A stretch of DNA of 64,000 nucleotides, taken from a plasmid. A program made the position numbers and the translations under genes. Positions 7,049 through 57,353 of the stretch are shown piece by piece; the first letter of the stretch is position 1, and the number at the start of each line of letters is the position of its first letter. The stretch lies in the sequence record NZ_MK262712.1, one strand, 5' to 3'. The notes beneath the pieces were generated by a model. That model was not told where the DNA came from. It saw only the letters and a list, made by a program, of their open reading frames with translations, and made no database searches.

Positions 7049-7053
7049 AAATT

Positions 7054-7480: not shown

Positions 7481-7573
7481 GGATCGCCCCGACCATCTTT
7501 TGTCTCAAAGGGTACTCCCACCGTGGCAGGCGGGAGGGGAATTTGAATTGACGCGCTAGCGTTAAAGGAACAT

Positions 7574-7972
7574 TTAGCCGCGCTGGTGCTGAATGTAGCG
7601 CTTTACGACTTCCAGCGGTGCTCCACCACATGACCCAACAAAGTAGCTGCGTGACCAGAGAACAGGCTTATTGTACGCCTCCCGCAAATCCAGAAATTCA
7701 TTCCGTAGCCGCCGACTTGTGACGGCTTTCAGGCTGTTAACCAGTTTTGACAGTTGCACAGTTGGTGGGTATTCGACCAGCATGTGAACATGATCGGCTT
7801 CTCCGTCACATTCTTTCAGTACAGCACCGAAATCACCGCAAACTTCACCTGCATACTGATTTACTTTTTCCAGATGTAACTCACCGAAAACTTTACGGCG
7901 GTACTTAGTCACAAAAACAATGTGAACATGTAATAAATAGGCAGAATGACGACTTCTGTTTATTTCCTGCAC
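7574..7972 (-). CDS. tnpA: IS200-type Y1 HuH transposase TnpA
   Basis: 132 aa with HuH motif HVHMLV and the conserved SRSYFVGSCGG tail. Confidence 0.85.
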   Translation of the reverse strand: MQEINRSRHSAYLLHVHIVFVTKYRRKVFGELHLEKVNQYAGEVCGDFGAVLKECDGEADHVHMLVEYPPTVQLSKLVNSLKAVTSRRLRNEFLDLREAYNKPVLWSRSYFVGSCGGAPLEVVKRYIQHQRG

Positions 7973-8037
7973 CTGTTGACTCCGTGATGTACATATGGTT
8001 ATTTATACAGGTTATCTCAATACACACTGAATGCAAA

Positions 8038-21000: not shown

Positions 21001-22303
21001 CGGCAACACCCTCTTCGCCCTGGAATGCAGCAATAACGATCTCATTCAGGAAGTACACCTGGTCCCGCTTAACAAGCTCTGAGCCGTCCTTGAAAACGGA
21101 AACAGATGGTTCATCAGACAGTATAAGTTTAGATTCCGGTTCGGTATAACTGGAATCATTGCCCGCTGTATTAGACACAGAATATGTTGCAACGTAAGAA
21201 GCGCTGGCCAGATCGCTTATATCAAAAAAATAAACAAATTTACCCGCAACTTCCTGATATCCGGCGACAGGTTGAAGAGTTCGACGGGACGGAGTTGACC
21301 AAATTTTGTTAAAATTAAGCTCCGTACCATCATCTAAAGTAACTTTTGTCATTGGAGAGAAGCTACCATCAGGAGCAAGTGTGAGCGACATTGCAGCAGG
21401 TTTCCACCAGTCATTGGTATCTGACCGGGCAGGAACCGAGACAGCTACAGCGATCGTCTGCGGAGCAACGTAGATATCTTTATCTCCGATCTTGAATGAC
21501 CGAGCTTCTTTAGAGACGTTCCAGAAGGTATTGTCTATCGCTGGAGCGCGGTAATCCCAGCTTAATCTCACCTTAGAGGTTACTGGTGGGGAGAAGTAAT
21601 TATTGAACGAGTTTAAGGTTACGCCTACATCCCTGCTTCCGAAATCGGAACCCCCATCACTGATGCCTACGCTTCCGGTCGTTATAGAACATTTTGAGGC
21701 TCCTGCAGCAATGGCGCAGGATGTCCCAGAACCGACAGACGCGACCATATCGTAGTCTCGGGGTTCAACGGTTATATCAATATTTGAGAGTGTCTCGTTT
21801 TTAATGTATGACGTCAGTGTTGAACCGGAAGAACCGTTGCTCATTGAACCTTTTATAGAAGTAATCACAGGAGCTACAGGCGCAACAGTCTTGAAGTTGT
21901 ACTCCCCTTCCTTGACTATGACTTTTTCACGTTCTGAGCCCGAGTAGTAAACGATTTGCCATGGAAGTTTGATATCCCCAGCTATGGCAGGGATGCCCTT
22001 CAGTGAGAACCCATTAGCAATCGGCATACCGGAATTATTAGGTAACCATTCAAACACACATTTCAGGCTACCAGCCGTACTTTTGACATTAGGATCAGAG
22101 GACACCTCGCATCCCTCAGATACCGGAATAGCTGTAACCGTACTTTCTTTCACGAAGGCCGTATTTACTTGTGAACTGGTAGAAAATTTGACATCTGGTA
22201 ATGACGTTTCCAGGGTACCGGAAACCATTATCGATTCTGCGTTTGAAAAAGCACTGAACACAGAACAGAACATCAGGAAAGAGATTTTATTAATTTTAGT
22301 CAT
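18062..22303 (-). CDS. Giant exported Ig-like (Big-domain-type) surface protein, 1413 aa; possibly RSP-like
   Basis: Signal peptide MTKINKISFLMFCSVFSAFSNA. Long beta-rich Thr/Ser/Val-rich sequence with recurring ~90-100 aa Ig-like segments. An RSP-like identity is recalled from IncHI1 plasmid R27, not verified. Confidence 0.55.
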   Translation of the reverse strand: MTKINKISFLMFCSVFSAFSNAESIMVSGTLETSLPDVKFSTSSQVNTAFVKESTVTAIPVSEGCEVSSDPNVKSTAGSLKCVFEWLPNNSGMPIANGFSLKGIPAIAGDIKLPWQIVYYSGSEREKVIVKEGEYNFKTVAPVAPVITSIKGSMSNGSSGSTLTSYIKNETLSNIDITVEPRDYDMVASVGSGTSCAIAAGASKCSITTGSVGISDGGSDFGSRDVGVTLNSFNNYFSPPVTSKVRLSWDYRAPAIDNTFWNVSKEARSFKIGDKDIYVAPQTIAVAVSVPARSDTNDWWKPAAMSLTLAPDGSFSPMTKVTLDDGTELNFNKIWSTPSRRTLQPVAGYQEVAGKFVYFFDISDLASASYVATYSVSNTAGNDSSYTEPESKLILSDEPSVSVFKDGSELVKRDQVYFLNEIVIAAFQGEEGVADIKSVVIDNVMASYTPTNVKGIYRLKPMPSLETNKVHTLTVVAENVNGISKTYSIDFTYMPMTFTLKSIESASTIYGYVRPYTSLVTQQSGNTCKIFSTEEDAQAFLSQFGTAVYGTACYVQWNNVPSGLEFYSKSKVPGLTGYFSKVGDNVLDYNVYVINTKGSKAIATHNRKTVKAVEPFAPEISYKMSKTVETLGKDTALVYITGGDAAKVLAKSVPANVVLTTKVEGQDAETKTYKNKSGGDTPVTYSERIKVPAAPLWTQTNVNIEASYENEASIKSSSVLKVYTVPNFSIRAYMKVAERKSATSLKVPVSVNIGQWNNSCNCTLYDASTMGQWDVVVYKVTSKWVTDEETGKDVSVTERTPLTGDLPVNSEGIATGELNMDDLTLGSHRIIAVATVRSPFKDFVLKRETSTTSIRVYKGANLEGGLSKSLIVGRVPLSAMVSFRTKSTDDYDSLSPTEWQMSSNNGSTWNTLEDMTGLRSVSIKQKEVGKWLYRAKLTNKYTGKVSYTDNLTVVAYREPKPVISVGKVLEGHSIPVTLTDNNEDVQGSAVEVQWSEDGEEWTEGGVKYMITSSEVPKYIFAKVRYTETDEMAGKSAWKETRARVTVIKHKKLSVKVEGNSQVEVGKKVTLQGTYTNPNIEYSSDAKVVQEWVLPDGSVKQGGLLDTVLTEDMLDERGYATFTYQAYMPEAKDRTIAKRKISVKSWVYKFPEPRLNTKLKYTMIPSELTVSVSGVDVSYPGVVFTQDWQYDKNMMTLSSDNNGTKVFQVTKSGTHTLTYVLKDNRNNEARVDYTFIVNEQSPMEISVTPKYSNKFMRAPLDLSLRSSVKLAHSADSIDNVTFKLNGKPVDGGKNYWSQTFENIMEGSYKLEMDVVSTQGQRGVVVVDFDVIPNTPPTCNLTYTETQLSWAFTAKCSDPDGKISSYVWKVNDQVRGVFGSTATLSKAQNKGKLVVSITAYDDSGDSATSFITLNN

Positions 22304-41339: not shown

Positions 41340-41498
41340 ACCTCCGAGTTAAAATGTCACTATCAAAAGATGGTGACATTTCTTTCTTTTGCTCTCTTAT
41401 GTCGGAAACCCAAAAATTTCACATGATACTATTCTCGTATAGACCTATGAGTGTCTTTGAAAAGTAACTTTCGTGGCTTCTCACATAAAAGGTTTCCT

Positions 41499-43937
41499 AT
41501 GCGCTTTTCACTATTCTTAAATCATTTTGCTTTAGCTTTGAGTCTCTCAATAGCCACGAGCATGTTTTCCAACGCCCAGGCCCGGGTATACGAGTACACC
41601 TTTACAGATATCAATGGGGCGCAAAAAAGTGTCCCTGAAAGTGCGCCCTATCTTAATCCACATGGGAATTTTAACGCTCTCCTCATTGGTGGCTTGGACC
41701 AACAAATCCGCTTAACCGTAACTCGCGATGCTGATAACAGTGCTGTTTACAGCACAACAACAAGTATCATCTCTGTTGATGACAGGATTTCTTCCGCTAA
41801 TGGAAATATGTTTTACGGAAAGACTGTCACTATTCCACCTATCAGTGATGGTCGTTACACCATAAAATCTGAGATTTTAGACTCAAAATCGACCGTTGTT
41901 TCAACAACATCCCATCCTTTTATAATAGATACGGTAGGCCCTACGTCTGATAACTTCTCTGTACCATGGATTCCTGGGTACAACATGGTTGTAACGGGAC
42001 CTCGCTGGGAACTTGGCCAAGGTCAAGAATCTGCCATAAATCTTGCAATTAAGAATATCAATGATCTATCTGGTTTTGATAAGGCTATTGTTCAAATAAT
42101 AAAACCAGATGGATCAATACAATCCAGCTATACGATGGCCTACGACGATGGGTCAAGAGCTGCTACAGCCCCTATAACTAAAGGTGGTGGAGCGATAGCT
42201 AAAGCTACATGGATGCCAGTGTCGGATGCCGATGTAGAGTTTCGCTTTCGAGCATTCCTTTATGATAAAGCCGGAAATGTTACTCAAGTCCCCGACCAAA
42301 AATTTGTATTTGATTCTTCTGCAGGTGAATATGAGCTATTTGCAGTTGCAGACCCCAATTCTTCAACTAGTGTTGTTCCCGGCATTTCGTCTGGCTACAT
42401 TAAATATTCAGCAGGGATGACTGTTAATACTAACCCTGTTACTCTTGTGTACAAGATTCCCAAACATAATTATAGGGCTTATAACAAAGCTGGTTTATCC
42501 TTCGGTTCTTTGCTTACTGAAGATAATAGTTATGTATATATAAAACAATCCACCCCAGTTGGTACATCATTTACTATTCATAATGGATACCAATACGGAG
42601 GAGGTAACGCTTCGTATAATGTTAAGTTAAGTTCAATCGCTCCGAAATCCCCATCAATAAAATCCTACTCAGCAAACTTTTCAACAATTGGCGATTTTTC
42701 TGCTGGCACAATGAAATTCACAAACATAGATTTGCCAGGTGAGTATCAAAGTATAACTGTGTTTGTAGACCCTAGGGATTATGTGCAGTCATTTTATAAC
42801 CTTACACAAGGCTACGAAGTTTGTACTATTGAGCCCGGAGAAAGTTCTTGCACTGGTCCTTTTTCATACGCAATAAATAAGGGGAATGGTTACATAGCTC
42901 ATTATTTTATAGTTCGCAATCAAGATAAGACACTTACATCAAATCAATTTGAGATTCGTAGCATCTGGAATACGGATTTAATACCTAAGATCACAGGGTA
43001 TGATTACAAAGAAGAGAATAAATCTGTCCTTGTTTATGTCACACAACCCGGCAATGGCAATTGGCGTGATGTCTTGATGCTTTCTAAGCTAGAGATACTG
43101 GATACAATTTCTAATACGGTTCTTCTGACGGGCACAAAAGCCGCGATGTCTGGAGAGGACTATACTTATGCATTTGATTTATCGGCTATACCTGAAGGGA
43201 AGTATGATTTAACCTTCAGGGCCACTGATACTTTTAACAACAGTTCTCAGTTGCCGTTCAGATCTCTTATTATAGATAACTCCCCTCCTTCAATTTCATT
43301 TTCGTATGAAGGGAAACCACTGTTATCAGAAAGTACAGTCTATGGATTAGAAAACATCTCAGTAGCTGTATCTGATGCTTTAAGTAAGTCCAAGATCTCT
43401 CAAATGGTTCTTCAAGGAGGCCCTGCATCAGATGATGTAGAATTAGGATTTACCCATAACACAGATGGTTCATACACACCACTTTATCCTCGTTTGTTTC
43501 CTTCACTTGATGAAAAAACTGATAAATACACACTTGTAGTTAAAGCTATAGATGATGCAGGTAATGAGTCATCAAAATCTATCCGTTTTGCATATTATCC
43601 TAAGAATCTCATTGTTCTTGATAAACTTAATACCCTTGCGGTTAACAAACCTTTAAACCTTTCTTCAGGTGAACCTCTGGCTGTTCTTAAAGCAAGTCAG
43701 TTACGCCGTAATGATGGTTCCTTAGCAAAAGGCGTACAGACAGCTTTAATTACTGTTAGGGGTGACTCAGCATTCCCAATTAGTGTTAATGGAAACCTTG
43801 TTTCTCCAGGTGAAACGAAAGAAATTCAAATAGATTTAGGTTCTGTAGGAAATGACGTTGTTGTCCCTATATTCCCAGGAGTATCTGGCGTTGTCGGTGC
43901 CTCCGGTTTTATTGTTGAATTCCCTCAACTAAAATAA
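41499..43937 (+). CDS. Exported ~810-aa surface protein, paralogue A of a four-member family
   Basis: Signal peptide ...SMFSNAQA|RVYEYTF. The C-terminal ~200 aa are highly similar to paralogues B-D and end in IVEFPQLK. Palindrome motif at 41458 in the 5' UTR. The ORF track starts at 41451. Confidence 0.65.
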   Translation: MRFSLFLNHFALALSLSIATSMFSNAQARVYEYTFTDINGAQKSVPESAPYLNPHGNFNALLIGGLDQQIRLTVTRDADNSAVYSTTTSIISVDDRISSANGNMFYGKTVTIPPISDGRYTIKSEILDSKSTVVSTTSHPFIIDTVGPTSDNFSVPWIPGYNMVVTGPRWELGQGQESAINLAIKNINDLSGFDKAIVQIIKPDGSIQSSYTMAYDDGSRAATAPITKGGGAIAKATWMPVSDADVEFRFRAFLYDKAGNVTQVPDQKFVFDSSAGEYELFAVADPNSSTSVVPGISSGYIKYSAGMTVNTNPVTLVYKIPKHNYRAYNKAGLSFGSLLTEDNSYVYIKQSTPVGTSFTIHNGYQYGGGNASYNVKLSSIAPKSPSIKSYSANFSTIGDFSAGTMKFTNIDLPGEYQSITVFVDPRDYVQSFYNLTQGYEVCTIEPGESSCTGPFSYAINKGNGYIAHYFIVRNQDKTLTSNQFEIRSIWNTDLIPKITGYDYKEENKSVLVYVTQPGNGNWRDVLMLSKLEILDTISNTVLLTGTKAAMSGEDYTYAFDLSAIPEGKYDLTFRATDTFNNSSQLPFRSLIIDNSPPSISFSYEGKPLLSESTVYGLENISVAVSDALSKSKISQMVLQGGPASDDVELGFTHNTDGSYTPLYPRLFPSLDEKTDKYTLVVKAIDDAGNESSKSIRFAYYPKNLIVLDKLNTLAVNKPLNLSSGEPLAVLKASQLRRNDGSLAKGVQTALITVRGDSAFPISVNGNLVSPGETKEIQIDLGSVGNDVVVPIFPGVSGVVGASGFIVEFPQLK

Positions 43938-43976: not shown

Positions 43977-44204
43977 GTATTTTTTTAATAAAGATGGCTG
44001 ATATGCCTAGCCCCCTCCCCTTTTCTTTTACATGACCTGAAAACCCATCTTCTTTTTTTTCACATATCCTCCCCCTTCGATATTTACCAGTCATCCCCTG
44101 AGCTTCCGCAATTACCTGAAGTGATAATATGCTGAACACCTCCCCTCTTCCCGGTGATTTACTTGTGACTTAACTTACTCATGAAGACCTGTATGAATAA
44201 AATC

Positions 44205-46450
44205 ATCCCGTTATTCGCAGCTACATCCCGGAAGCCTCTAAATTCTGATGATGCCCCACATATGCAGTACGATCCCTGTTCGCAGTCGTATATCTTAAGC
44301 CTCAGCGGATTCCTGATGCGCAGCAGCTGAAAACAACCCCCTTGTTCGCAGTCAGATACCTTAAGCCTCATCAGTCTCCTGATGTGCAGCAGTTGAAAAC
44401 AACCCCGTAGTTCGCAGTCGGATACCAGAGTCACAGCAGACTCATAATGTGCAGCTGGTGAAAACAACCCCGTTGTTCGCAGTCGGATACCAGAAGCCAC
44501 AGCAGACACATAATGTGCAGCCGGTGAAAACAATCCCGTTGTTCGCAGTCAGATACCTCCAGCCTCATCAGCCCCCCGATGCGCAGCAAGTAAAACCCCA
44601 TGTTCGCAGACGCATACCTGAAGCCACAGCAGACTCATGATGTGCAGGAGGTGAAGACAACCCCGTTGTTCGCAGGCTGATACCTGAAGCCACAGCAGAC
44701 TCATAATGTGCAGCCGGTGAAAACAACCCCGTTGTTCGCAGTCGGTTACCAGAAGCCACAGCAGACTCATAATGTGCAGCCGGTGAAACAACCCCGTTGT
44801 TCGCAGTCGGATACCTCCAGCCTCATCAGACTCCCGATGCGTAGCAAGTTAACCCCCCTCAGCTTGTCCGCAGTCGGATACCCGAAGCCACCACAGACTC
44901 ATGATGTGCAGCAGGTGAATACAACCCCGTTGTTCGCAGTCGGATACCAGAAGCCACAGAAAACTCATAATTTGCAGCCGGTGAAAACAACCCCGTTGTT
45001 CGCAGTCGGTTACCAGAAACCACAGCAGACTCATAATGTGCAGCCGGTGAAAACAACCCCGTTGTTCGCAGTCGGTTACCAGAAACCACAGCAGACTCAT
45101 AATGTGCAGCCGGTGAAAACAATCCCGTTGTTCGCAGTCAGATACCTCCAGCCTCATCAGCCTCCCGATGCGCAGCAAGTTAAACCCCATGTTCGCAGTC
45201 GGATACCAGAAGCCACAGCAGACTCATTATGTGCAGCTGGTGAATACAACCCCGTTGTTCGCAATCGGATACCAGAAGCCACTGCAGACTCATGATGTAC
45301 AGCATGTGATAACAATTCCCTGTTCGCAGTCAGATACCTCCATCCTCATCAGACCCTTGATGCGCAGCAAGTTAAACCCCCTCAGCTTGTCCTCATTTGG
45401 TTACCTGAAGTCTCTTCAGGCTACCGATGTGTAGCCAGTTAAACCCCTTGTTCGCAGACGCATACCTGAAGCCACAGCAGACTCATAATGTGCAGCCGGT
45501 GAAACAACCCCGTTGTTCGCAGTCGGATACCTCCAGCCTCATTAGACTCCCGATGCATAGCAAGTAAACCCCCCTCAGCTTGTCCGCAGTCGGATACCCG
45601 AAGCCACCACAGACTCATGATGTGCAGCAGGTGAATACAACCCCGTTGTTCGCAGTCGGATACCAGAAGCCACAGCAGACTCATAATGTGCAGCCGTTGA
45701 AAACAACCCCGTTGTTCGCAGGCTGATACCTGAAGCCACAGCAGACTCATAGTGTGCAGCCGGTGAATACAAACCCGTTGTTCGCAGGCTGATACCTGAA
45801 GCCACAGCAGACTCATAGTGTGCAGCCGGTGAAAACAACCCCGTTGTTCGCAGTCGGTTACCAGAAGCCACAGCAGACTCATGATGCGTAGCGAGTTAAA
45901 ACAACCCCCTTGTTCGCCGTCATTAAGTGAAGCCTCTACTGACTGATGAAGTTCAGCCAGTGAATACAACGCCGTTATTCGTAGTCGTTACGTGAAACCT
46001 CAGCGGATGAATGATGTGCAGCCGGTGAAAACAACCTCGTTGTTCGCACTATACTCATGTGAGCCTCTCGTAACTCCCGAAGCCCCATAGATGATTTCAA
46101 CTCCTTTTTATAAAATCGGCTATCTGAATCCTCAGACTATTCCAGATATCTTGCAGATAAAACCATCCCGCTGTCTGTTCGCAGTCGGCTATCTTAAGCC
46201 TTATCAGATTCCTGATGCTTGCAGGTGTAAAAATCCTTTTGTTCGTAATCGGATCCAAGGATTCTCTGGACACCCATGAAGTCCACAGATGAAATGCAAC
46301 TCCGCTGTTCGCAGTCTGGTCATGCGTGCCCATGGAGACTCATGAAGCCCCACAGATGCAATCAAACAACGTTTCACAAAGTCGGTATCAGAATCCACAG
46401 AAGAATCCTAATGCCTTGTAGATGAAAACCCATTGTTCGTAGTCGGCAAT
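44205..46450. repeat. Tandem array of about 34 x 66-bp repeats (candidate centromere/iteron array)
   Basis: Period of exactly 66 (for example 44981 to 45047). The consensus unit GTGAAAACAACCCCGTTGTTCGCAGTCGGATACCAGAAGCCACAGCAGACTCATAATGTGCAGCC contains the inverted repeat AACAAC-ccc-GTTGTT. Two alternating unit subtypes. Edge units are more degenerate. Confidence 0.85.
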
Positions 46451-46553
46451 TCTGGTCTGGAGCCCCAATAAGTTGAACAGCCATGTTTTCGACCTCGAAA
46501 TTTGGGAAGGTATACATCGTTAAACCGGCCTCCAGTAGATAGGTGAAAGAGAA

Positions 46554-46585
46554 GGGCAGGGCAGGGCAGGGCAGGGCAGGGCATG
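46554..46585 (+). repeat. (GGGCA)6 pentanucleotide microsatellite / G-quadruplex-type motif
   Basis: gggcagggcagggcagggcagggcagggca read directly. Confidence 0.8.
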
Positions 46586-46803
46586 GTAAAGGGGTGGCAT
46601 AGTCATTTGCGCCCATGGGTTCTAGCTAAATTTTAAAAATTGAGTATGGATGGCTGGGAAAAAGTCTCAGAATTCACCAAATCTGTGAATTTTGCCTAGT
46701 TAAATTAGATTTCTTTTAATATCAATACCTTGAGAATCATTTGTACATTTCTCGCCCAAAAAAGACTGTGCACGAAATCTCATTTTGAGCGCATGATGTG
46801 ATA

Positions 46804-46827
46804 AAAGTGCATTGTAATGCACTTTTA
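46804..46827. promoter_or_regulatory. 24-bp palindrome about 55 bp upstream of parA (candidate ParA/ParB autoregulatory operator)
   Basis: AAAAGTGCATT-gt-AATGCACTTTT. Confidence 0.4.
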
Positions 46828-46883
46828 CCTTGTAATACGCTCAATCCTCATGAATAATGTGAAGACTAACCTAAGGAGAGATC

Positions 46884-48131
46884 ATGAGCATATTAGATGA
46901 TATTCGTACTATCGGCCTAAAGATGAAAAATGAACAAGCAAGCCTCAAGGAAATAATCTTGGAGTCGAGTCGGGTTGATGTTTCGGATGAACAAGTCGAT
47001 GGCTTAGATCGTCTTATCTATAACCATTGTTTAAATAAAAAAACTCTTTCGGACTTCTTTGGTAAATCAAGAAACACTTTTAGTAGAATTCTTGCTGAAC
47101 TACATGAGAAAAAAGTGATCGGTGAACCTATCTTCCAGAATAAGAGTCACCTGTATACACGTTGGGATGTTCAAAAAATAATGGAAGCGATGGGCACTAT
47201 TCAATATCGTGAAATGTATTTGCCCCGAGTTATTGTTACGGAAAACCATAAAGGTGGGACAGGTAAAAGTACAACAACAGCAACACTTGCTACCGCGGCC
47301 GCTTTGGATCTTAATCTGAATGCAAAAATCTGCGTAATTGATCTTGACCCCCAAGGCTCGTTAGGCAATAACCTTATCCACTCAACTAGTGAAGATAGTG
47401 TTTACCTAACCATAACCGATGTTCTGCTTAGTGAAATTGAAGATAATGACTTTACACAATATATAAAACAGGGATATACGGAAGCACAAATTATTGGTGC
47501 TATGGCATTTTCAACCCATCTCCCTAACATGGATGTTATAACTGCATTCCCGACAGATGATAGATTTACTGATAAATATTGGAGCCTCGATAAGGAGTCA
47601 AGACTCAAACTTCTTACACGTTTTCGTGATGTGGTTATACCTGTATTAAAGGAAAAATATGACCTTATATTTATAGATACTCCGCCACAAGATTCTCCAA
47701 TTATTTGGTCAACAAACGAAGCAGCTGATGCAATACTTGTTCCCATTACACCACGAGAATATGATTTTGCATCAACCACAAACTATATGATTACGATTTC
47801 AGACCGACTTGAGCAGCTTCCATCTAAGGGAACAAATATTAAATGGATTAATGTTCTTGCAGTAAACGTAGATGATAGAAGTCAACATGAGATTCGTACT
47901 TTAAATAAACTAGTAAGAACTGTACGTGATCGGTTCATGACAACAAATATTAAACATTCAGAGGCTTTCGTTGCAGCGGCTGAAAAAGGTCGTACTGTAC
48001 TCGATATTAAAAAATCAGAAGAACTTTGTTCTTCGAAACAATATGATATTGCTGAAATGTCGGTTCAGTCGGTGTATCAACAACTTATCAATGAAATTAA
48101 AAGCTTCTCAGTTAGGGAGGAGGGTAAATAA
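46884..48131 (+). CDS. parA: Type Ia partition ATPase ParA/SopA-like with N-terminal HTH extension
   Basis: Deviant Walker A KGGTGKSTTTATLA about 110 aa from the N-terminus, followed by DLDPQGS. 415 aa is consistent with SopA/P1 ParA. Confidence 0.85.
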   Translation: MSILDDIRTIGLKMKNEQASLKEIILESSRVDVSDEQVDGLDRLIYNHCLNKKTLSDFFGKSRNTFSRILAELHEKKVIGEPIFQNKSHLYTRWDVQKIMEAMGTIQYREMYLPRVIVTENHKGGTGKSTTTATLATAAALDLNLNAKICVIDLDPQGSLGNNLIHSTSEDSVYLTITDVLLSEIEDNDFTQYIKQGYTEAQIIGAMAFSTHLPNMDVITAFPTDDRFTDKYWSLDKESRLKLLTRFRDVVIPVLKEKYDLIFIDTPPQDSPIIWSTNEAADAILVPITPREYDFASTTNYMITISDRLEQLPSKGTNIKWINVLAVNVDDRSQHEIRTLNKLVRTVRDRFMTTNIKHSEAFVAAAEKGRTVLDIKKSEELCSSKQYDIAEMSVQSVYQQLINEIKSFSVREEGK

Positions 48132-49141
48132 TGAGTGATGTTGAACGCGGTACAAGCAAAGACAAATACTTAACCGGAAACAGCAAACGTACATTTGTCG
48201 ATCAAAAAAGCGGACTTCCACCTTTACGTACTTCTCCTACACAGAAGCGACTATTTACTCTAGCAAATGGGCGTAAAGTTGAAGCTCGCTACGTTGTCGT
48301 CCCTGGCTCAGAAGTTGCTAATAAAACGCTCGTTCATGAACTAAACCCACGAAATCAAGAGGCAGTTGACGATCTCTCTACAAGAGAAATTCTTCCTTTA
48401 ATTAAAGAGAATGGGGTTACAACTGAAGCTATTGCCGTCTACCGGGACGGCCAATTTTACCTAATTGAAGGAAGTAGGCGTCGTTTCTGCTGCATAAAAT
48501 GTTCGGTTGATTTACCTTTATGGGCCTTCGATGTAGAGGTTAGCCGTGAAGATGTCGATTGTATTGTTAATGCTGCACAAACGGCAAAACGATTCTCGTA
48601 TCGTGAAGTTGGAATTAAATACCTTGAAATCATGAAGAATAAGGGTTTTAAAACTAATGAGGAACTTGCTTCTTATCTTAATATTGGTATTGAATCGATA
48701 AGAAAGAGAATTCAGGCTGCAAAAATCAGTAAAGAACTTATTAGAATATTCCCAGATAGTGAGGGGATACCTAATACTTATTATAGTAAATTGGCTAGAA
48801 TTGAAAAAACCGCTAATGCTAATAACATTCCTCTGACAGAGCTAACATCTGAAGTAGGGGCGGATGACAATAAAATTACTAACATTAATGATATTGAGGA
48901 AGTTCAGAAGTCAATTTTAGATGGTTTACATTCAGTTCTTAGTATTCTTTGTAATGATGTAAATAAACCGCAAAACTGGACAGTGACTGATATTGCTGCT
49001 TTTGATAATAAGGATACTTACGCTAGGGTAAAAAGAAGCGCCGATGGCCAGAAAGTAAGCTTTGAATTTAAGCGTATTGGTCAATCAACAATAAATGAGA
49101 TTGAACGCTTAATTAAAGTTAGTATTAGCAAAGCAAAATAA
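48131..49141 (+). CDS. parB: Partition protein ParB/SopB-like
   Basis: ATGA-coupled to parA. ParB N-domain motif YLIEGSRRRF, 336 aa. Confidence 0.7.
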   Translation: MSDVERGTSKDKYLTGNSKRTFVDQKSGLPPLRTSPTQKRLFTLANGRKVEARYVVVPGSEVANKTLVHELNPRNQEAVDDLSTREILPLIKENGVTTEAIAVYRDGQFYLIEGSRRRFCCIKCSVDLPLWAFDVEVSREDVDCIVNAAQTAKRFSYREVGIKYLEIMKNKGFKTNEELASYLNIGIESIRKRIQAAKISKELIRIFPDSEGIPNTYYSKLARIEKTANANNIPLTELTSEVGADDNKITNINDIEEVQKSILDGLHSVLSILCNDVNKPQNWTVTDIAAFDNKDTYARVKRSADGQKVSFEFKRIGQSTINEIERLIKVSISKAK

Positions 49142-49325
49142 TTATTTTATTTTTAGTCATGATTCTTTAACAGGGATCATGACTTTCTCATTTATGCAAC
49201 TCACATGTACGACTTTGACACTGGAGGTTCTAACAGCTTTCTGTTCCACTCTTGGCAGAGAAGAATCCCTTTGCTCAAGTCCATCTCTTGGTGCTCCGGC
49301 AGCTTTCAGAAGCATCGTTGACAAA

Positions 49326-49480
49326 AACAACCCCATTGTTCGCAGTCGGATACCTGAAGCCACCGCAGACTCATGATGTACTGCAGGTGAAAACAACCCC
49401 GTTGTTCGCAGTCGGATACCAGAAGCCACGGCAGACTGATTCTGTGCAGCAGATGAATACAACCCCATTGTTCGCAGTCT
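49326..49480. repeat. Mini-array of about 2.5 units of the same 66-bp repeat, downstream of parB
   Basis: TTGTTCGCAGTC cores at 49335, 49401 and 49467 (66-bp spacing), same AACAACCCC-GTTGTT feature. Confidence 0.75.
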
Positions 49481-49862
49481 GTTTCTTGTTGCTCTTGAAA
49501 CCTTCTGGTGCACCGTTATGATTATACAACCAGCCTAACTAGTTAGGGCTGCGCCCAGCCTACTCACGAATAACCCTGACAATGTACCGTCCTAAAGAAC
49601 TCTATAACCCTTATACTGGGGGAGGGGGCAACACCAACTAACGGGTCTGATCATGTCGAAATTCGACTCTGATCATTTCTGGAAAATTTCCAGCAAAGCT
49701 GGTATCTATTGCCCTGATGTGAAAATTAACCTATCTGGTGGGTAGTTAGAAAGTTACTTTTTATTGTTACTTTCTATAGTTAGACGATGAATCTATGCCT
49801 AACGTCCCTAATCAGTATGAACCTGATCAGGGCACATTTTTTGATTAATGCATGTTACTTGG

Positions 49863-52268
49863 TTACTTGATTTGCGGAAATTCGATTATGAAATTGCTTT
49901 CCCCTGTAGAACCGTTTTCTGCTGTGAAAATAGGAACAGTTGAGTTTTCACCGGTTCCAAGGTCTATCTGAATTTCTTTTGTCTCCCCGGGATGAATAAC
50001 GTTCCCAAGGATGTTTATCGCATAATCTGCGTCCTTCCTGACCGTGATGTTTGCCGTTTGTATACCCTTAGCCAGTGAGCCATCGTTACGTCGTAGCTGT
50101 CCCGTCCGCATGACGGCCAACGGTGTGTTGTCACTGGTTTTTAGCGCCTTTACAACACCCAAAGTTTTCAGCTTCTCAAGGGTGACCAGGTTTTTTGGGT
50201 AATAGGCGAACTGAATGCTTTTTTGAGTAGTGTTACCTTTCGCGTCGGTAGCATATGCGGTTAGTGTATATTTGTCCGTGTTTGCATCCAGACTGGGGAA
50301 GAGACGAGGGTAATCAGGTGTATAACTACCGTCCGTATTCTGGTTAAACCCCAAGATAACGCTATCCGACGCTGGTCCTCCTTTAAGTTCAAGTCTGACA
50401 AGGCTGGGTGCTGTTAACTCATCATTTAGCGTTATACTGATGTTCTCAAGCCCGAAAACAGTAGCACCGGGGGATAGCGGCGCATTTTCATATTTAAAAT
50501 TAACAACAGGAGGTGTCTTGTCGTTAATCAGATTTATGAATGGTGATGAAGTTTCATTGTTAAAGCTGTCCTTTGCCAGAAAGCCTAAATTGTATTTACC
50601 TTCGGCCAGTTTGCTGAGATCAAAACTATATGTGTAATCCTCGCCAGATAGAGCTGTTTGGATACCTGACAGTAGTTGGTCCCCGGTATCTGAATCAATC
50701 AGAGCAGCAGATTTGAGTTGCAACAAATCGCGGAATTTTCCGCGCCCTGGTTGCGTCACAAATAAGAGTACAGTTTTGTTTTCCTCTTGGTAACTGTATC
50801 CGGTTATTTTGGGTAAAAGATCAGTGTTCCAGTGATGTCTCTTTTCTACGGTGACTGATGAAAGGGTTTTATCCATATCAGTCAATTTGAAGGCATAAGT
50901 TGTAATACCATTACCTGATTTTGGAATAGACCATGATACCGCACCGGTACACTCAGTCTCACCAGCTGGTATCTGACATATCTCAGTGTTTCCACTCATC
51001 GCCCTCTGACCATAATTTCGTGGAGACGCAGTGATCCTTACAGAACTGAATTTCACGGGCAGATCTATGGTATCCCAAAGGTAGCTACTCGAATTCATTT
51101 CTCCTTTTTTATCTGAAGTTAACCATACTTCAGGTGCTGCCGGGCTGGCCGGAGCCTCACTTCCTAAATTGATATTATAGGAGAGTGAGCCTCCACCCCA
51201 TTGATATCCGTTATGGATGACGTAAGCTACCTTATAGGCCGTTTTCGCGGATACATAACTGTATCCATTCGCTTCGGAAATAATTGTGCCAAATTTCAAA
51301 CCAGCTTTACTGTATTCCCTTCGATTATTCGATGGAACCCTGTACACGAGTGTTAAAGGGTTTTGGTTAACGGTCATTCCCGGCTTATATGCTATGTAAC
51401 CTTCACTAAATCCCGGAACTACGCTTGTTTTAGAAGTCGGGTCATAAACAGCAAATAAAGTATATTCACCAAGATCTGAGTCAAATATGAACTTCTGATC
51501 CGGCAAAACTTTACGGTTTCCCGCTTTATCATAGAGCGTCACACGGAAACGATATTCCACATCAGCGTTTGATACAGGCATCCATGATGACCGACTCATA
51601 TTCCCTTTTGTCCACGGTATTGAAAGGGATGCTGATCCACTGTCATAAACCATATCTGTAGTTGAAAAAACAGTATCATCAGGTTTTATCACCTGAATAG
51701 TCGCTTTATCAAAACCGGTGGCAGATTTGACGTTTTTCACATTCAGGTACAGCTTTGCTTCAGCCCCGAGGCCCAGTTCCCAACGCTCACCTGTTAAGAC
51801 CATATCATATCCGGGGTTTTGGTCCACGCTCAGGTTATCTGACGAAGGCCCTACAGTATCAATAATAAAATTGTGAGACGTGCTGTCGATAACAGTGTTT
51901 TGAGTATTCAGGATATCTGACGTTATTACATAACTTCCATCACTCAGTGGTGGCAATGTCAGCGTTTTACCATAAAATTCTTCACCAGTTGATGCCTTTA
52001 TACGGTCATTGACCGTCACGCTCTCAGTAGTAAAGCTATATACTCCAACATTGTCTTTCTTTACTGTTACCTGAATTTTTCTGTCGAGTCCCGATATTAT
52101 TCTTACCTGAATTTTTTCATTGGTATTTAGGATACCTGCTTCCGCACTGACTGATTTATCCGTTCCATAGACATCCTTGAATACATATTCATACACACGA
52201 GCATATGAGGGGAGTGAAAAAGCGGAGAGGGCAATTAGTATTAAAGTAGTCTGTAAATTAATTTTCAT
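49863..52268 (-). CDS. Exported 801-aa surface protein, paralogue B
   Basis: Signal peptide MKINLQTTLILIALSAFSLPSYA|RVYEY. C-terminus IIEFPQIK. Palindrome at 52313 in the 5' UTR. Confidence 0.7.
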   Translation of the reverse strand: MKINLQTTLILIALSAFSLPSYARVYEYVFKDVYGTDKSVSAEAGILNTNEKIQVRIISGLDRKIQVTVKKDNVGVYSFTTESVTVNDRIKASTGEEFYGKTLTLPPLSDGSYVITSDILNTQNTVIDSTSHNFIIDTVGPSSDNLSVDQNPGYDMVLTGERWELGLGAEAKLYLNVKNVKSATGFDKATIQVIKPDDTVFSTTDMVYDSGSASLSIPWTKGNMSRSSWMPVSNADVEYRFRVTLYDKAGNRKVLPDQKFIFDSDLGEYTLFAVYDPTSKTSVVPGFSEGYIAYKPGMTVNQNPLTLVYRVPSNNRREYSKAGLKFGTIISEANGYSYVSAKTAYKVAYVIHNGYQWGGGSLSYNINLGSEAPASPAAPEVWLTSDKKGEMNSSSYLWDTIDLPVKFSSVRITASPRNYGQRAMSGNTEICQIPAGETECTGAVSWSIPKSGNGITTYAFKLTDMDKTLSSVTVEKRHHWNTDLLPKITGYSYQEENKTVLLFVTQPGRGKFRDLLQLKSAALIDSDTGDQLLSGIQTALSGEDYTYSFDLSKLAEGKYNLGFLAKDSFNNETSSPFINLINDKTPPVVNFKYENAPLSPGATVFGLENISITLNDELTAPSLVRLELKGGPASDSVILGFNQNTDGSYTPDYPRLFPSLDANTDKYTLTAYATDAKGNTTQKSIQFAYYPKNLVTLEKLKTLGVVKALKTSDNTPLAVMRTGQLRRNDGSLAKGIQTANITVRKDADYAINILGNVIHPGETKEIQIDLGTGENSTVPIFTAENGSTGESNFIIEFPQIK

Positions 52269-52406: not shown

Positions 52407-54812
52407 TTAGTTAAGTTGTGGGAACTCGATGATGAAGTTGCTTTGACCCGTAGACCCGTTGATAGCCGGAAAAATCGGAACCGTAGAGTTTTCACCAGTT
52501 CCGAGGTCAAGCTGTATTTCTTTAGTTTCCCCGGGATGGATCACCGTTCCCAGAATGTTGATGGCATACTCAGCGTCGCTTCTGACCGTGATATTTGCCG
52601 TCTGCATACCCTGGGCAAGAGAGCCATCGTTCCTTCTCAACTGGCCGGTACGCATGACTGCCAGAGGTGTGTTGTCACTGGTTTTGAGTGCTTTAACCAC
52701 GCCCAGTGTTTTCAGTTTCTCCAGGGTAACGAGATTTTTAGGGAAGTAGGCGAACTGAATACTTTTTTGGGACGTATTACCTTTAGCATCTGTGGCATAT
52801 GCAGTGAGAGTGTATTTATCTGTCGACGTATCCAGAGTAGGAAACAGCCGTGGGTAATCAGGTGTGTAGCTACCATCAACATTCTGGTTGAAACCAAGGA
52901 CTACGCTATCAGATGCAGGCCCCCCTCGTAGTTCCAGGCGGAGAAGAGTAGGTTTAGTCAGCTCATCGTTTAGTTTAATGGATATATTCTCCAGACCATA
53001 GACCGTGTTGCCGGAGGTGAGCGGGGCATTGTCGTAGTTAAAGCTGATCTCAGGGGGAGTCATATCATGCACTAACGTGATGAATGGAGAAGATGTTTCA
53101 TTTTCGAAGGTATCTTTTGCCAGAAAGTTTAAGTCGTATCTTCCTTCAGCCAACTTACTTAAGTCAAACGCATAAGTATAATCTTCACCAGAAAGCGCTA
53201 TTTTGGCTCCATTCAGCACCTGCATACCTGAATTAGCATCAATCAGTTCAGCGGACTTAAGCTGAAGTTGATCTCTGAAGGTACCATTACCGGGTTGGGT
53301 AACAAATAAAAGTACTTTTTTCTTATCTTCCTGATAGTCATATCCCTTTATCCTCGGTAGAAGGTTTGTGTTCCAGTAGTTCCTCCTTTCCTGATTAATT
53401 GATGAAAGTGTCTTGTCCTCATTATACATTTTAAAAGAATATGTCACGCCTCCATTGCCACTTTTAGCAATTGACCACGGTACCGGCCCGCTGCACTCAG
53501 TCTCACCTGGTTGGATTTGACAGATTTCCAGGTTACCTGTAAATGCTCTCTGGATATAATTTCTCGCAGAAGCACGGATCCTCGCTGAAATAAATTTCAC
53601 CGGTAGATCACTTGTTTTCCATAAATAGTTAAAAGAATTAATTTCACCTTTTGTGTCCGTCGTGAGCCAAACGCTACTAAGCATTTCCGGTCCGACAGGC
53701 GTGTCGGGACCCAGTTTAAGGTTATAGTTTGCAGTAGCGCCGCCCCATTGGTACCCGTTATGTATATCGTACCTGTTGTTATATGCTGTTGTTGCCGCCA
53801 CATAGGCGTAACCGTTAGCTTCTGAAATGATAGAGCCAAAACTTAAACCAGCTTTGTTGTATTTCCTTACATTGTTGATGGGGATACGATAGATTAAGGT
53901 AATCGGGTTTTGATTAACTGTCATACCCGCTTTATAAGCTATATAACCCGAAGTGAACCCTGGAACAACGCTTGTTTGCGCTTCGGGGTCCCGTATAGCA
54001 ATAAGAGTGTATTCACCCAGTTGGTCATCAAATACAAATTTCTGTTCCGGTAATACTTTTCGGGAGCCTGCTTTGTCAAAGAGTGTAACCCGGAAACGAT
54101 ACTCTACATCAGCATTTGATGAAGGCATCCAGGAGGCCTTTTTCCGGTTCCCTAAAGTCCATGCAGCAGACAGGGAGGAAGACCCGCTATCATAGTCCAT
54201 AGCAGTAATGGAATAGACGCTATTATCGGGATTAATAACCTGTAATGTAGCTTTATCGAAACCAGCGACTGCTTTAACGTTGTTAACGTTCACATATAGT
54301 TTTTGGTCGGCTCCAAGGCCCAGTTCCCACCTTTCTCCCTGGGTGACCATTTCATACCCCGGTTTCTGTAAAATGCTCAAATCGTCCGCTGTAGGGCCCA
54401 CACTATCTATGGTGAAATCCTGTGTGGTGGAGTCGACCATAGCACCCTGTGTGTTAAGTATTTCAGAGATAACCTGATACGGTCCATCACTCAGGGGAGG
54501 AAGCGTGATGATTTTCCCGTAGAACTCTTCACCTGTTGATGCCTTAATTCGATCACTTACCTTAATGCTATCGGTTGTCGTGCTGTAAACCTCCGTTCCT
54601 GACTTCCGGACAGATACGTGTACTTTGCGATCTAGGCCGGAAATCAGGCTCAACTGAATTTTTTCGTTAGTGTTAAGAATGCCGGTTTCCGCACTGACTG
54701 ATTTCTCCGCACCGTAGATATCCTTAATGGTGTACTCATAGACCCGTGAATGCGATGAAAAGGACATCGTCGCGAGGATTATCGTTGTCAGCAGTTTTAT
54801 CTTGGTATTCAT
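52407..54812 (-). CDS. Exported 801-aa surface protein, paralogue C
   Basis: Signal peptide ...SFSSHS|RVYEY. C-terminus IIEFPQLN. Palindrome at 54849 in the 5' UTR. Confidence 0.7.
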   Translation of the reverse strand: MNTKIKLLTTIILATMSFSSHSRVYEYTIKDIYGAEKSVSAETGILNTNEKIQLSLISGLDRKVHVSVRKSGTEVYSTTTDSIKVSDRIKASTGEEFYGKIITLPPLSDGPYQVISEILNTQGAMVDSTTQDFTIDSVGPTADDLSILQKPGYEMVTQGERWELGLGADQKLYVNVNNVKAVAGFDKATLQVINPDNSVYSITAMDYDSGSSSLSAAWTLGNRKKASWMPSSNADVEYRFRVTLFDKAGSRKVLPEQKFVFDDQLGEYTLIAIRDPEAQTSVVPGFTSGYIAYKAGMTVNQNPITLIYRIPINNVRKYNKAGLSFGSIISEANGYAYVAATTAYNNRYDIHNGYQWGGATANYNLKLGPDTPVGPEMLSSVWLTTDTKGEINSFNYLWKTSDLPVKFISARIRASARNYIQRAFTGNLEICQIQPGETECSGPVPWSIAKSGNGGVTYSFKMYNEDKTLSSINQERRNYWNTNLLPRIKGYDYQEDKKKVLLFVTQPGNGTFRDQLQLKSAELIDANSGMQVLNGAKIALSGEDYTYAFDLSKLAEGRYDLNFLAKDTFENETSSPFITLVHDMTPPEISFNYDNAPLTSGNTVYGLENISIKLNDELTKPTLLRLELRGGPASDSVVLGFNQNVDGSYTPDYPRLFPTLDTSTDKYTLTAYATDAKGNTSQKSIQFAYFPKNLVTLEKLKTLGVVKALKTSDNTPLAVMRTGQLRRNDGSLAQGMQTANITVRSDAEYAINILGTVIHPGETKEIQLDLGTGENSTVPIFPAINGSTGQSNFIIEFPQLN

Positions 54813-54947: not shown

Positions 54948-57353
54948 CTATTTAATTTGCGGAAACTCAATGATGAAATCGCTTTGCCCGGTAGCGCCGT
55001 TTGTTGCCGGGAAAATTGGGACCGTTGTGTTAACACCAGCGCCGAGGTCTATCTGGATGTCTTTGGTTTCGCCCGGCTGAATGACAGTACCCAGTATGTT
55101 GATCGCATAATTAGCGTCAGTCCTGAGCGTGATGTTGGCAGTTTGTACACCCTGAACCAAGGAGCCATCGTTCCGCCTAAACTGCCCGGTACGCATGACG
55201 GCCAGCGGAGTGTTGTCGCTGGTTTTCAGCGCCTTCACCACACCCAGCGTTTTGAGTTTTTCCAGGGTCACAAGATTTTTCGGATAATAGGCGAACTGAA
55301 TGCTTTTCTGAGTGGAGTTCCCTTTGGTATCCGTTGCATACGCCGTCAGGGTATATTTATCGGTATTTTCGACAAGGGTAGGGAACAGACGTGGATAATC
55401 TGGCGTATAGGAGCCATCGGCATTCTGGTTGAAACCAAGAATCACGCTATCAGATGCGGGGCCACCTTTCAGCTCAAGGCGTTCGAGAACAGGCTTTGTC
55501 AGCGCGTCATTCAGGCTAATCGCGATGTTCTCCAGCCCATACACGGTAGAACCGGAAGCAAGCGGGGCATTTTCATAATTAAATATGACGTCTGGGGGGG
55601 TCATATCGTTCACCAGCGTGATGAACGGCGATGACGATTCATTATCGAAGGTGTCTTTGGCAAGGAAGGAAAGGTTATATTTGCCTTCCGGGAGAGCTCC
55701 CAAATCAAACGTGTAGGTGTAATCATCACCAGCAATCGCTGTATTGGTACCGGTTAACACCTGGACATTTGAATCCGCATTAATTAGAACCGCAGACTTG
55801 AGCTGCAATTTGTACCGTAAACTGCCGTTCCCCGGTAGATTCACAAATAGCAGAACCTTTTTCTTGTCTTCCTGATAATCATAACCAGTAATTCTGGGCA
55901 ACTGGTCAGCATTCCAGTATTGCCGCCTTTCAGCATATTGTGAGAAAAGGGTGCCATCTGAGTTGGTCATCTTGAAGAAAAAACCCATATGGCCGTTACC
56001 ACTTTTTTGAATATTCCCAACAATTTTCCCTTCACACTCCAGCTCGCCGACAGGAATGTTACATAAGAAACCTCCGGTATTAGACATAGCCTTTTGAATG
56101 TAATTTCGTGCCGACGCTTTCACGCGGGCAGTAAGAAATGTCACCGGGAGATCGGATGTTTTCCAGAGGAAATCATATGAGCTTACCGAGCTTTTCTTGT
56201 CCGAGGTAATCCACACGTCAGGAGTAGTCGGGCTTACCGGCGCATCTGCACCCATTTTAATATTGTAGGTTACACTGGCCCCCCCCCACTGATAACCGTT
56301 ATGGATAACAGAGAGCGTCTGGTAAGGGGTCGTGACCGACACATAGCTGTAGCCGTTAGCCTCAGAAATTATGTTCCCGAAGGCCAGCCCACCTTTTCTG
56401 TACTCCCTGCGGTTCGTAGAAGGGACACGGTAGACAAAAGTAATGGGATTCAGATTGACCGTCATCCCCGATTTATATTCAACATACCCTTTACTGAATC
56501 CGGGTATAACACTGGTTTCAGCTGTAGGGTCATACACCGCGACTAGCGTGTATTCGCCTAAATCCGAGTCAAAGAGGAACTTCTGATCCGGCAGGACTTT
56601 TCGGGTACCTGCCTTGTCGTATAGCGTGACACGAAAGCGATATTCTGTATCCGCATTGGACACCGGCATCCAGTCGGCTTTAACCGCGCTCCCCTTAGTC
56701 CACGGAACAGAAAGCGATGCAGAACCGCTGTCGTAAACCATGTCCATTTTGGAATAGACGGTATTATCGGGATTTAAGATCTGGATAGTAGCTTTATCAA
56801 AACCGGCCGTCGCTTTCACATTTTTGACGGTGACATATAGTTTTGCTTCTGCCCCCAACCCCAGTTCCCAGAGATTTCCGGTAAGCACCATGTCATATCC
56901 CGGACGCTGGTCAATCCTCATGTTATCGGCTGTGGGGCCAGACGTATCAATCAGGAATGATTGAGTTGTCGAATCAATAAGGGCATCCTGGGTATTCAAT
57001 ATTTCCGAGGTAATGGTATACAGCCCTTCACTTAACGGTGGCATGGTTATAACTTTCCCGTAAAACTCTTCATCTGATGATGATTTGATGCGATCGGCAA
57101 CTTTCACGCTTTCTGTCGTCGTGCTGTAGACATTCGCGTCGCCTTTTTTCACCGTCACACGGATTTTCCTGTCCAGCCCTGAAATCAGGCTAAGCTGGAT
57201 TTTCTCCGTGGTGTTCAGCTTCGCTGAATCGGCGCTAACGGATTTCTCCACACCGTAGATATCTTTTATTGTGTACTCATAAACACGGGAATGGCCCGGC
57301 AATGAAAGGGTGCCGAGGATTAATGCCGCCAGAAGTTTGAGTTTGAATTTCAT
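54948..57353 (-). CDS. Exported 801-aa surface protein, paralogue D
   Basis: Signal peptide ...SLPGHS|RVYEY. C-terminus IIEFPQIK. Palindrome at 57431 upstream. Confidence 0.7.
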   Translation of the reverse strand: MKFKLKLLAALILGTLSLPGHSRVYEYTIKDIYGVEKSVSADSAKLNTTEKIQLSLISGLDRKIRVTVKKGDANVYSTTTESVKVADRIKSSSDEEFYGKVITMPPLSEGLYTITSEILNTQDALIDSTTQSFLIDTSGPTADNMRIDQRPGYDMVLTGNLWELGLGAEAKLYVTVKNVKATAGFDKATIQILNPDNTVYSKMDMVYDSGSASLSVPWTKGSAVKADWMPVSNADTEYRFRVTLYDKAGTRKVLPDQKFLFDSDLGEYTLVAVYDPTAETSVIPGFSKGYVEYKSGMTVNLNPITFVYRVPSTNRREYRKGGLAFGNIISEANGYSYVSVTTPYQTLSVIHNGYQWGGASVTYNIKMGADAPVSPTTPDVWITSDKKSSVSSYDFLWKTSDLPVTFLTARVKASARNYIQKAMSNTGGFLCNIPVGELECEGKIVGNIQKSGNGHMGFFFKMTNSDGTLFSQYAERRQYWNADQLPRITGYDYQEDKKKVLLFVNLPGNGSLRYKLQLKSAVLINADSNVQVLTGTNTAIAGDDYTYTFDLGALPEGKYNLSFLAKDTFDNESSSPFITLVNDMTPPDVIFNYENAPLASGSTVYGLENIAISLNDALTKPVLERLELKGGPASDSVILGFNQNADGSYTPDYPRLFPTLVENTDKYTLTAYATDTKGNSTQKSIQFAYYPKNLVTLEKLKTLGVVKALKTSDNTPLAVMRTGQFRRNDGSLVQGVQTANITLRTDANYAINILGTVIQPGETKDIQIDLGAGVNTTVPIFPATNGATGQSDFIIEFPQIK

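Follow-up and report, generated by a model that had tools for sequence, protein, structure and literature searches.

The window analysed here, a 64,000-nt stretch of plasmid sequence record NZ_MK262712.1, carries upstream of its parA gene an array of about 2.2 kb built of tandem 66-bp units, and we conclude from sequence comparison that this array is very probably the cis-acting centromere (parS) of the sole annotated partition system of the plasmid. Several lines of evidence point this way: orthologous parAB loci in many plasmid lineages adjoin arrays with a common core, this core is laid out as in P1 parS and the ParB belongs to the P1 family, variants of the site track variants of the ParB sequence, both unit and core are confined to the par locus of the whole 274-kb plasmid, no other partition genes are annotated there, and the number of units varies as it does in the sopC family. 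In addition, the orthologous Par1 module of R27 is cited as a functional partition system in PMC13245405, which refers to Lawley & Taylor 2003. The functional unit is an inverted repeat (dyad) together with an adjoining TCGCAG hexamer and is intact in about half of the units; by analogy with P1, the dyad is probably bound by ParB.

Anatomy of the repeat array

A first-pass annotation, made from the letters of the window, had described an array of about 34 units, and three approaches agree with it. Tandem Repeats Finder (TRF), suggested there as a check, returned a single array with a period of 66 that spans 44277-46048 and scores 1793, with 27.1 copies, 77% matches and 2% indels. A profile hidden Markov model (HMM) built from the clear units extended this array in register through degenerate units, from 44214 on the left to about 46430 on the right, and manual segmentation anchored on GTTCGCAG resolved 34 head-to-tail units at 44212-46434, followed by a 13-nt partial core at 46435-46447. 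The upstream array as a whole (44212-46447, plus strand) therefore comprises 34 tandem units of consensus GTTCGCAGTCGGATACCAGAAGCCACAGCAGACTCATAATGTGCAGCCGGTGAAAACAACCCCGTT and a partial 35th core. Since unit lengths vary between 61 and 69 bp (66 bp in 19 of the 34, 65 bp in six, 64 bp in three, 61 and 67 bp in two each, 62 and 69 bp in one each), the 66-bp period is modal rather than exact, as it had been taken to be.

With up to one mismatch allowed, the window contains 25 occurrences of the motif TTCGCAGTCGG, where shuffled sequence predicts 0.41; all of them are on the plus strand and lie within the upstream array or just 3' of parB. A composite core, AAACAAC-CCC-GTTGT-TCGCAG, straddles the unit junctions; among aligned units the per-position information is highest at TTGTTCGCAG, and the core stretch of about 30 bp reads GTGAAAACAACCCCGTTGTTCGCAGTCGG. 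The core is thus the best-conserved part of the unit, but it is not invariant as first proposed, and the dyad attributed to every unit is real but in its exact form, AACAAC-N3-GTTGTT, present in just nine upstream units, while GTTCGCAG is found in 23. The combination ACAA-N5-TTGT plus TCGCAG occurs in 15 upstream units and in all three sites downstream of parB.

Two unit subtypes are interspersed rather than alternating. Subtype B, which is 61 or 67 bp long and has no left dyad arm, occupies six scattered positions (unit starts 44541, 44799, 45130, 45322, 45388 and 45515). The description of degenerate ends and a homogenised centre was borne out by a unit-by-unit identity matrix: subtype-B units excepted, units 3-25 (44410-45911, plus strand) are 83-98% identical to the consensus, whereas units 0-2 and 26-33 reach 58-83%. 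Blocks have been duplicated within the centre: the unit at 44799 shares 95% identity with the one at 45515, and the unit at 44866 shares 100% with the one at 45582. When unit identities were averaged for each offset, weak peaks at nine and 11 units were the only sign of higher-order periodicity in the array of the window.

As 66 bp corresponds to 22 codons, the array might be a gene or pseudogene for a protein of 22-residue repeats, and stretches of up to 204 codons are open, for example an open reading frame (ORF) at 44708-45295 that encodes repeats of TTPLFAVGYQKPQQTHNVQPVK. However, each of the six frames contains 19-36 stop codons, units of 61, 62, 64, 65, 67 and 69 bp disrupt the frame, homologous arrays have periods (43, 55, 56 and 67 bp) that are not multiples of three and conserve just the core of about 22 bp, and the array is free of RefSeq genes except at its left edge, which a 76-aa ORF overlaps. 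A coding repeat was rejected on these grounds and retains practically no probability, in line with the initial assessment of the array as non-coding. CRISPR (clustered regularly interspaced short palindromic repeats) was likewise rejected, in agreement with that assessment, as the whole 66-bp unit is repeated, its "spacer" part included, and unique spacers are missing. Structured RNA was rejected too, Rfam giving a single chance-level match (E 0.76, 15.5 bits against a gathering threshold of 40) that lies outside the array.

The parAB operon and its flanking sites

The array ends upstream of parA, as had been noted, but the distance to the parA ATG (46884) is 436 bp instead of 430 bp. The parA gene (46884-48131, plus strand) encodes a Walker-type ATPase of 415 aa that RefSeq annotates as ParA family and that matches Pfam AAA_31 and CbiA. 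Its structural matches in the PDB are full-length long ParA proteins, namely 7npd (E 6e-36), P7 ParA (3ez9) and P1 ParA (3ez2), with alignments starting from residue 60-95 onward and the P-loop domain beginning near residue 115. ParA accordingly has the N-terminal DNA-binding extension of about 100 aa on the Walker ATPase that characterises type Ia. The parB gene (48131-49141, plus strand), the start of which overlaps the parA stop at 48131, encodes a 336-aa protein of the P1-ParB family, with matches to Pfam PF08775 (E 3.5e-11) and to P1 ParB residues 142-333 (PDB 1zx4 and 2ntz, E 1e-15); residues 66-223 also match TIGR00180, under the cut-off of that model. ParB contains an SRRR arginine patch that is invariant in the alignment, a helix-turn-helix (NIGIESIRKRIQAA) and a C-terminal dimer/B-box domain (KDTYARVKRSADGQKVSFEFKRI), and such a protein encoded directly after parA is again the type Ia arrangement.

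Downstream of parB, the first-pass annotation had overlooked a mini-array of three cores and two 66-bp-period spacers (49325-49481, plus strand), seen by TRF (49324-49479, period 66, 2.4 copies), by the HMM (matches at 49338 and 49404) and in the sequence itself. These cores share the strand of the upstream array and follow a terminator-like hairpin at 49155-49184 (plus strand), which the consensus scan placed between parB and the three cores.

Upstream of parA, an imperfect inverted repeat with 29-nt arms (46785-46844, no strand assigned) forms a candidate parA operator. Its centre at 46803-46826, AAAAGTGCATTGTAATGCACTTTT, is a perfect palindrome with 10-bp arms and a 2-bp spacer. The repeat is identical in six IncHI3-type relatives and has one to three substitutions in IncHI5-type loci; a similar palindrome is found upstream of the Xenorhabdus parA. 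By analogy with the annotated P1 ParA operator, the palindrome is probably the operator at which ParA represses parAB. The inverted repeat abuts or overlaps a sigma-70 promoter-like site, TTGTAA-17 nt-AATAAT (46830-46858, plus strand), found by the consensus scan 26 bp 5' of the parA ATG; across the region, such sites were no commoner than in shuffled sequence, so the promoter match alone is weak evidence. Between the array and this promoter region there is a perfect (AGGGC)6 run at 46553-46583. Its copy number in close relatives is 2, 2, 4, 5, 5, 5 or 6, which alters the centromere-operator spacing by as much as 20 bp, and the run is absent from IncHI5-type loci.

Related loci conserve the core and not the spacer

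Orthologues were sought by tblastn with ParB, and a further 64 loci came from scanning collections of genomes and metagenomes; the locus scan used protein alignment A2, alignment A1, which included Photobacterium and P1, being too divergent. ParB identity in the tblastn search was 46-49% for IncHI1/IncHI2, 85% for IncHI5-type plasmids and 39-51% for Photobacterium and Xenorhabdus. Arrays or single sites adjoin parAB in more than 60 related loci, which come from plasmids as well as from genomes and metagenomes. A tandem array lies upstream of parA in almost every locus that reaches that far, and in these more than 60 loci the sites are on the parAB strand with one stray exception. This sole reverse-strand core lies about 3.9 kb upstream of the array in pCFA1707-type plasmids (L006 position 310; L022 and L023 position 2310).

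Array periods across the loci are 43, 52-56, 66-67, 110 and 249 bp, and spacers are unrelated among lineages. Upstream arrays comprise about 23 units of 52-54 bp in IncHI1, 11 at a spacing of about 249 bp in IncHI2 and six of 56 bp in pCFA1707-type plasmids, and other genera have periods of 43, 54, 55 and 110 bp. The IncHI5-type Raoultella plasmid carries 42 units of 67 bp upstream and 13 downstream, and a metagenome lineage whose ParB is 86% identical combines a 67-bp period with yet another spacer. In Xenorhabdus, parAB is flanked by one core site to either side, and in Photobacterium a single site lies upstream.

What is conserved across the loci is a core of about 22 bp, in which a TCGCNN hexamer follows a short dyad that encloses a run of C. 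It reads ATTTAAC-CCC-CTTAA-TCGCCA in IncHI1/2 and AAACAAC-CCC-(C/G)TTGT-TCGCAG in IncHI3/5, and it accompanies parAB across replicon types (IncHI1A, IncHI2A, IncHI1B/FIB, IncU-typed and untyped). Conservation of the core amid unrelated spacers is the phylogenetic footprint expected of a protein-binding site. Because Xenorhabdus and Photobacterium carry single sites, the core alone is the basic element, and these single-site loci together with core-only conservation show that the array is this element multiplied.

Two divergent groups of loci were seen besides these. In a metagenome lineage with a 39%-identical ParB (L081 4900-4947, L082 6989-7036), AAAACAATGGGGGTTGTCACAGC occurs twice just after parB, with ACAA/TTGT arms and a central run of G5, not C5, relative to the hexamer side. 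Two loci with a 31%-identical ParB (L028/L083; a Phycisphaeraceae metagenome-assembled genome) have four copies of another palindrome, TTTTCGCATGCGAAAA, and no IncHI-type core.

Over all loci with readable protein and sites, variation in the core goes with variation in ParB. ACAA/TTGT arms are always found with the helix-turn-helix recognition segment E-[ST]-x-R-K-R, and TTAA/TTAA arms with the segment H-V-S-V-x-K-R. Similarly, the TCGCAG hexamer goes with a ParB C-terminus of GQK..FEFKR and TCGCCA with GRK..FEFNR, P1, which also has TCGCCA, having YEFNR. Xenorhabdus is a double hybrid in which a ParB with an ESVR helix and FEFNR faces a site with ACAA arms and TCGCCA, and in the 39%-identical lineage an ESLRKR helix goes with maintained ACAA…TTGT arms. 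The arm changes are mirror-symmetric (TTAA to ACAA on the left, TTAA to TTGT on the right), which is what binding of a dimer to a dyad would predict.

Comparison with known partition systems

The annotated P1 parS, ATTTCAA-G-GTGAAAT-CGCCA, has one A-box followed by a second in inverted orientation, with which the B-box TCGCCA overlaps; the P7 B-box is TTCCCA. In P1 ParB, as the 1zx4 structure and the description of the Pfam family establish, the helix-turn-helix reads the A-boxes and the C-terminal dimer domain reads the B-boxes. The system of the window shares with P1 and P7 the ParB family (PF08775, PDB 1zx4), the type Ia ParA and a separate operator upstream of parA. Its core and that of IncHI1 have the same order of arm, inverted arm and abutting hexamer, with an offset from first arm to hexamer that is 1 bp longer than in P1. 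The IncHI1/2 hexamer is exactly the P1 B-box, and the hexamer varies among IncHI cores as it does between P1 and P7. By contrast, ParB is just 27% identical to P1 ParB, and P1 parS is a single composite site of about 80 bp downstream of parB with a site for integration host factor (IHF) between its halves, whereas the window has about 34 plus three copies of a half-site-like module, mostly upstream.

Sop partition of F provides the second parallel. There, sopC comprises 12 direct repeats of 43 bp, and SopB binds a 16-bp inverted repeat within each of them. The window array resembles it in belonging to a type Ia system and in consisting of tandem direct repeats, each with one inverted-repeat site and a spacer that is less constrained than the site. 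At 2.2 kb against 0.5 kb it is four to five times longer, which supports the earlier view that it is several-fold larger than classical centromeres. It differs in ParB lineage, in site sequence, which is unrelated to the 16-bp SopB-type repeat, in the extra hexamer element and in position, sopC lying downstream of sopB and the window sites flanking the operon on both sides. The proteins are not of the Sop lineage, as ParB scores 41 bits against a cut-off of 274 with NCBIfam NF010252 (PRK13698) and ParA 29.6 against 725 with the SopA model. The array therefore combines a sopC-like tandem layout with P1-like composite sites, without an IHF site and mainly upstream of the operon.

A third counterpart, R27 Par1 of IncHI1, is orthologous (ParB 46% identical), lies in the same place inside the Tra2 region and has an array upstream of parA with the sister core ATTTAACCCCCTTAATCGCCA. 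It differs in having TTAA/TTAA arms and TCGCCA where the window has ACAA/TTGT and TCGCAG, a period of 52-54 bp in two blocks and no downstream sites. IncHI1/2 plasmids also have a second (ParM/ParR) module, whereas none is annotated on the plasmid of the window.

Based on these parallels we infer ParB binding, the assignment of its reading heads and partition activity as follows. Each intact unit junction would constitute one composite ParB site, AAACAAC-CCC-GTTGT-TCGCAG. On the model of P1 ParB, a ParB dimer would read the ACAA/TTGT arms through its helix-turn-helix domains and TCGCAG, the B-box equivalent, through its C-terminal dimer domain. About 15-23 usable upstream sites and the three downstream ones, which bracket parAB, could bring many ParB dimers together in a single large partition complex, and this complex would stimulate nucleoid-bound ParA-ATP so that plasmid copies are placed on either side of the division plane.

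Several observations weigh against this reading. The left dyad arm is damaged in roughly half of the units, the hexamer TCGCAG matches the P1 B-box at four of six positions, and the arms AACAAC/GTTGTT around a C-run differ from the P1 A-box ATTTCAC. The bulk of the array is upstream, whereas in classical type Ia systems (P1, F) the centromere is downstream of parB. No IHF consensus (WATCAANNNNTTR) occurs in the array on either strand, and an IHF-bent, P1-like architecture was rejected for this reason. Independent lineages in the co-variation are few, two large clades and three outliers, so the co-variation is supportive rather than statistical proof. Finally, neither the array nor a cis site of R27 Par1 is described in the full-text literature covered, which did not include the original R27 study. 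A paper on R27 "incC repeats" concerns the RepFIA replicon, with deletions that excluded the partition regions, and papers on IncHI5 and IncHI1B plasmids mention parABC or partition just in passing.

Plasmid context

The window is 100% identical to the Klebsiella quasipneumoniae plasmid NZ_CP055011.1 (274 kb), which is typed IncFIB/IncHI1B (pNDM-MAR-type, conjugative) and has a MOBH relaxase and an F-type mating-pair system. A query with the par region (window 44000-49600) found 563 matching plasmids in PLSDB, of which Klebsiella accounts for 527. The whole 274-kb plasmid was rebuilt from pieces and searched with the unit HMM and the 23-nt core, and matches were found at the par locus only; its annotations contain no partition genes besides parAB.

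These data also bear on the original suggestion of a centromere or iteron array, of which the centromere is strongly supported by the comparison and the iteron disfavoured. In the latter case, the repeats would bind a replication initiator and set copy number via titration or handcuffing. Large direct-repeat arrays are typical of iteron plasmids, and the window array shares with iteron arrays such as P1 incA and the RepFIB-type 42-bp array both its long direct repeats and a possible incompatibility by titration of a plasmid protein; on the same plasmid, moreover, a 42-bp array of 27 copies adjoins the RepB-family rep gene. However, iterons adjoin rep genes or origins and bind the initiator, whereas the array follows parAB. 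The array is separated from the rep genes, at record positions 1-1089 and 173512-174396, by about 38 kb and about 62 kb, and the second of these genes, RepB-family and IncFIB-type, has its own 21-bp repeats (GCTGGCGGGTAAACCATCATT) and 42-bp array, both unrelated to the 66-bp unit. The core, furthermore, accompanies parAB over differing replicon types and co-varies with ParB, which makes an iteron function very unlikely.

In NZ_CP055011.1 (L036), the rep-flanking repeats are 2.9 copies of 21 bp at 173358-173418 and 26.8 copies of 42 bp at 174521-175646, with GTTTACCCGCCAGC common to both. The latter, putatively an iteron or incompatibility array, is very large.

Locally, the array sits between an immunoglobulin (Ig)-like-domain gene and parA, and the locus is inside an IncHI Tra2-like transfer region. 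This setting raises a further alternative, in which the array would act, instead of or beside partition, as a hub from which ParB spreads and silences genes or relieves H-NS silencing in the manner of VirB, a relative of ParB in Shigella. Targets could be the flanking AT-rich tra and Ig-like genes, or parAB itself. Consistent with such a role, the array forms a GC island (51-53% against 36-42% around it) within the Tra2-like region, sites lie on both sides of the operon, the plasmid encodes H-NS and Hha homologues, and one annotation pipeline calls this ParB "VirB". Against it stand the complete parA-parB operon with its type Ia ParA, which is the sole annotated partition system of the plasmid, and the fact that the arrays are conserved with parAB and not with any cargo gene, the neighbours differing between IncHI1/2 and IncHI3/5. 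We thus regard a regulatory hub as improbable.

Genes for Ig-like-domain proteins (Big_3_2, Big_3_3, DUF4165) form a family around the par locus. Paralogues of about 800 aa are found upstream at 41451-43937 (plus strand) and downstream of parAB at 49863-52268, 52407-54812 and 54948-57353 (all minus strand), and a 1413-aa Ig-like gene lies farther away at 18062-22303 (minus strand). Members of the family presumably resemble the R27 Ig-like proteins reported necessary for IncHI conjugation. Elsewhere, the window contains two annotated TnpB (RNA-guided endonuclease family) genes with an IS200/IS605 tnpA at 5774-9225 and an annotated Phd/YefM-RelE/ParE toxin-antitoxin pair at 5098-5620. In NZ_CP055011.1, a 424-bp tract of 9-nt-based repeats (188343-188766; TRF periods 18, 27 and 45; CAGAGCCAT/CAGAGCCGT-like) lies within a 2.1-kb hypothetical gene and is probably a coding repeat.

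Array turnover

Among plasmids with at least 98% identical ParB, we counted 16, 29, 29, 29, 30, 35 or 37 detectable upstream units and two to three downstream, so that the comparison of unit number proposed in the first-pass annotation reveals a variable array. Higher-order periods occur in related plasmids, five units in the IncHI5-type array, where the 334-bp period has 90% matches and the 67-bp period 80%, and two units (106 bp) in IncHI1. In the Sop family, the repeat number of sopC ranges from 3 to 17 and one repeat is sufficient (PMC3177203).

Unequal recombination would expand and contract such an array, and growth and shrinkage of this kind would leave most copies redundant. It is possible, although we consider it the less probable case, that the array is mostly surplus satellite in which a few sites act and the rest are a neutral or selfish product of unequal crossing-over. 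This would qualify the centromere reading and is not exclusive of it. The degenerate ends, homogenised centre and block duplications, the spread of unit number in near-identical plasmids and the five-unit period of the IncHI5-type array all fit this possibility, as do the single sites that apparently suffice in Xenorhabdus and Photobacterium and the single sopC repeat that suffices in F. On the other hand, large arrays, of about six units at the minimum, are kept in every enterobacterial IncHI lineage sampled, which suggests that multiplicity is of some benefit.

A broader and more speculative proposal, to which we give a rather low probability, is that IncHI centromeres are miniature satellite centromeres whose sites have co-diversified with ParB, the arms with the helix-turn-helix and the hexamer with the C-terminal domain. 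They may be fast-turnover, partly higher-order arrays that hold just the core of about 22 bp constant, with modular specificity classes (TTAA plus TCGCCA, ACAA plus TCGCAG and the Xenorhabdus hybrid ACAA plus TCGCCA). Expansion to 16-55 sites may have come about through competition for ParB among co-resident related plasmids, a counterpart in bacteria to centromere drive. Instead or in addition, the arrays may let ParB act in a VirB-like way as well, within the transfer region under H-NS control.

The arrays also matter for assembly. Several short-read contigs start or stop inside par arrays (L010 1-442, L021 1-267, L025 1-187 and L015 2-629). Short-read assemblies thus break beside parA because of the array, and since par arrays are a recurrent break point, array lengths in draft assemblies are unreliable.

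Implications

As a putative IncHI centromere, the array is large and medically relevant, but unsurprising in principle. In Klebsiella, genes for carbapenemases and virulence are carried by pNDM-MAR-type IncHI1B/IncFIB plasmids and by plasmids related to them. Since parAB is the sole annotated partition system, its centromere is a plausible target for plasmid curing or displacement by incompatibility. IncHI3- and IncHI5-type plasmids have one core, so mutual interference in partition is predicted between them, while IncHI1- and IncHI2-type plasmids have a different core in common. The family as a whole is a natural series of single sites, 6, 20 and more than 50 sites at spacings of 43-249 bp, and within it the specificities for A-box and B-box appear to have been swapped as modules.

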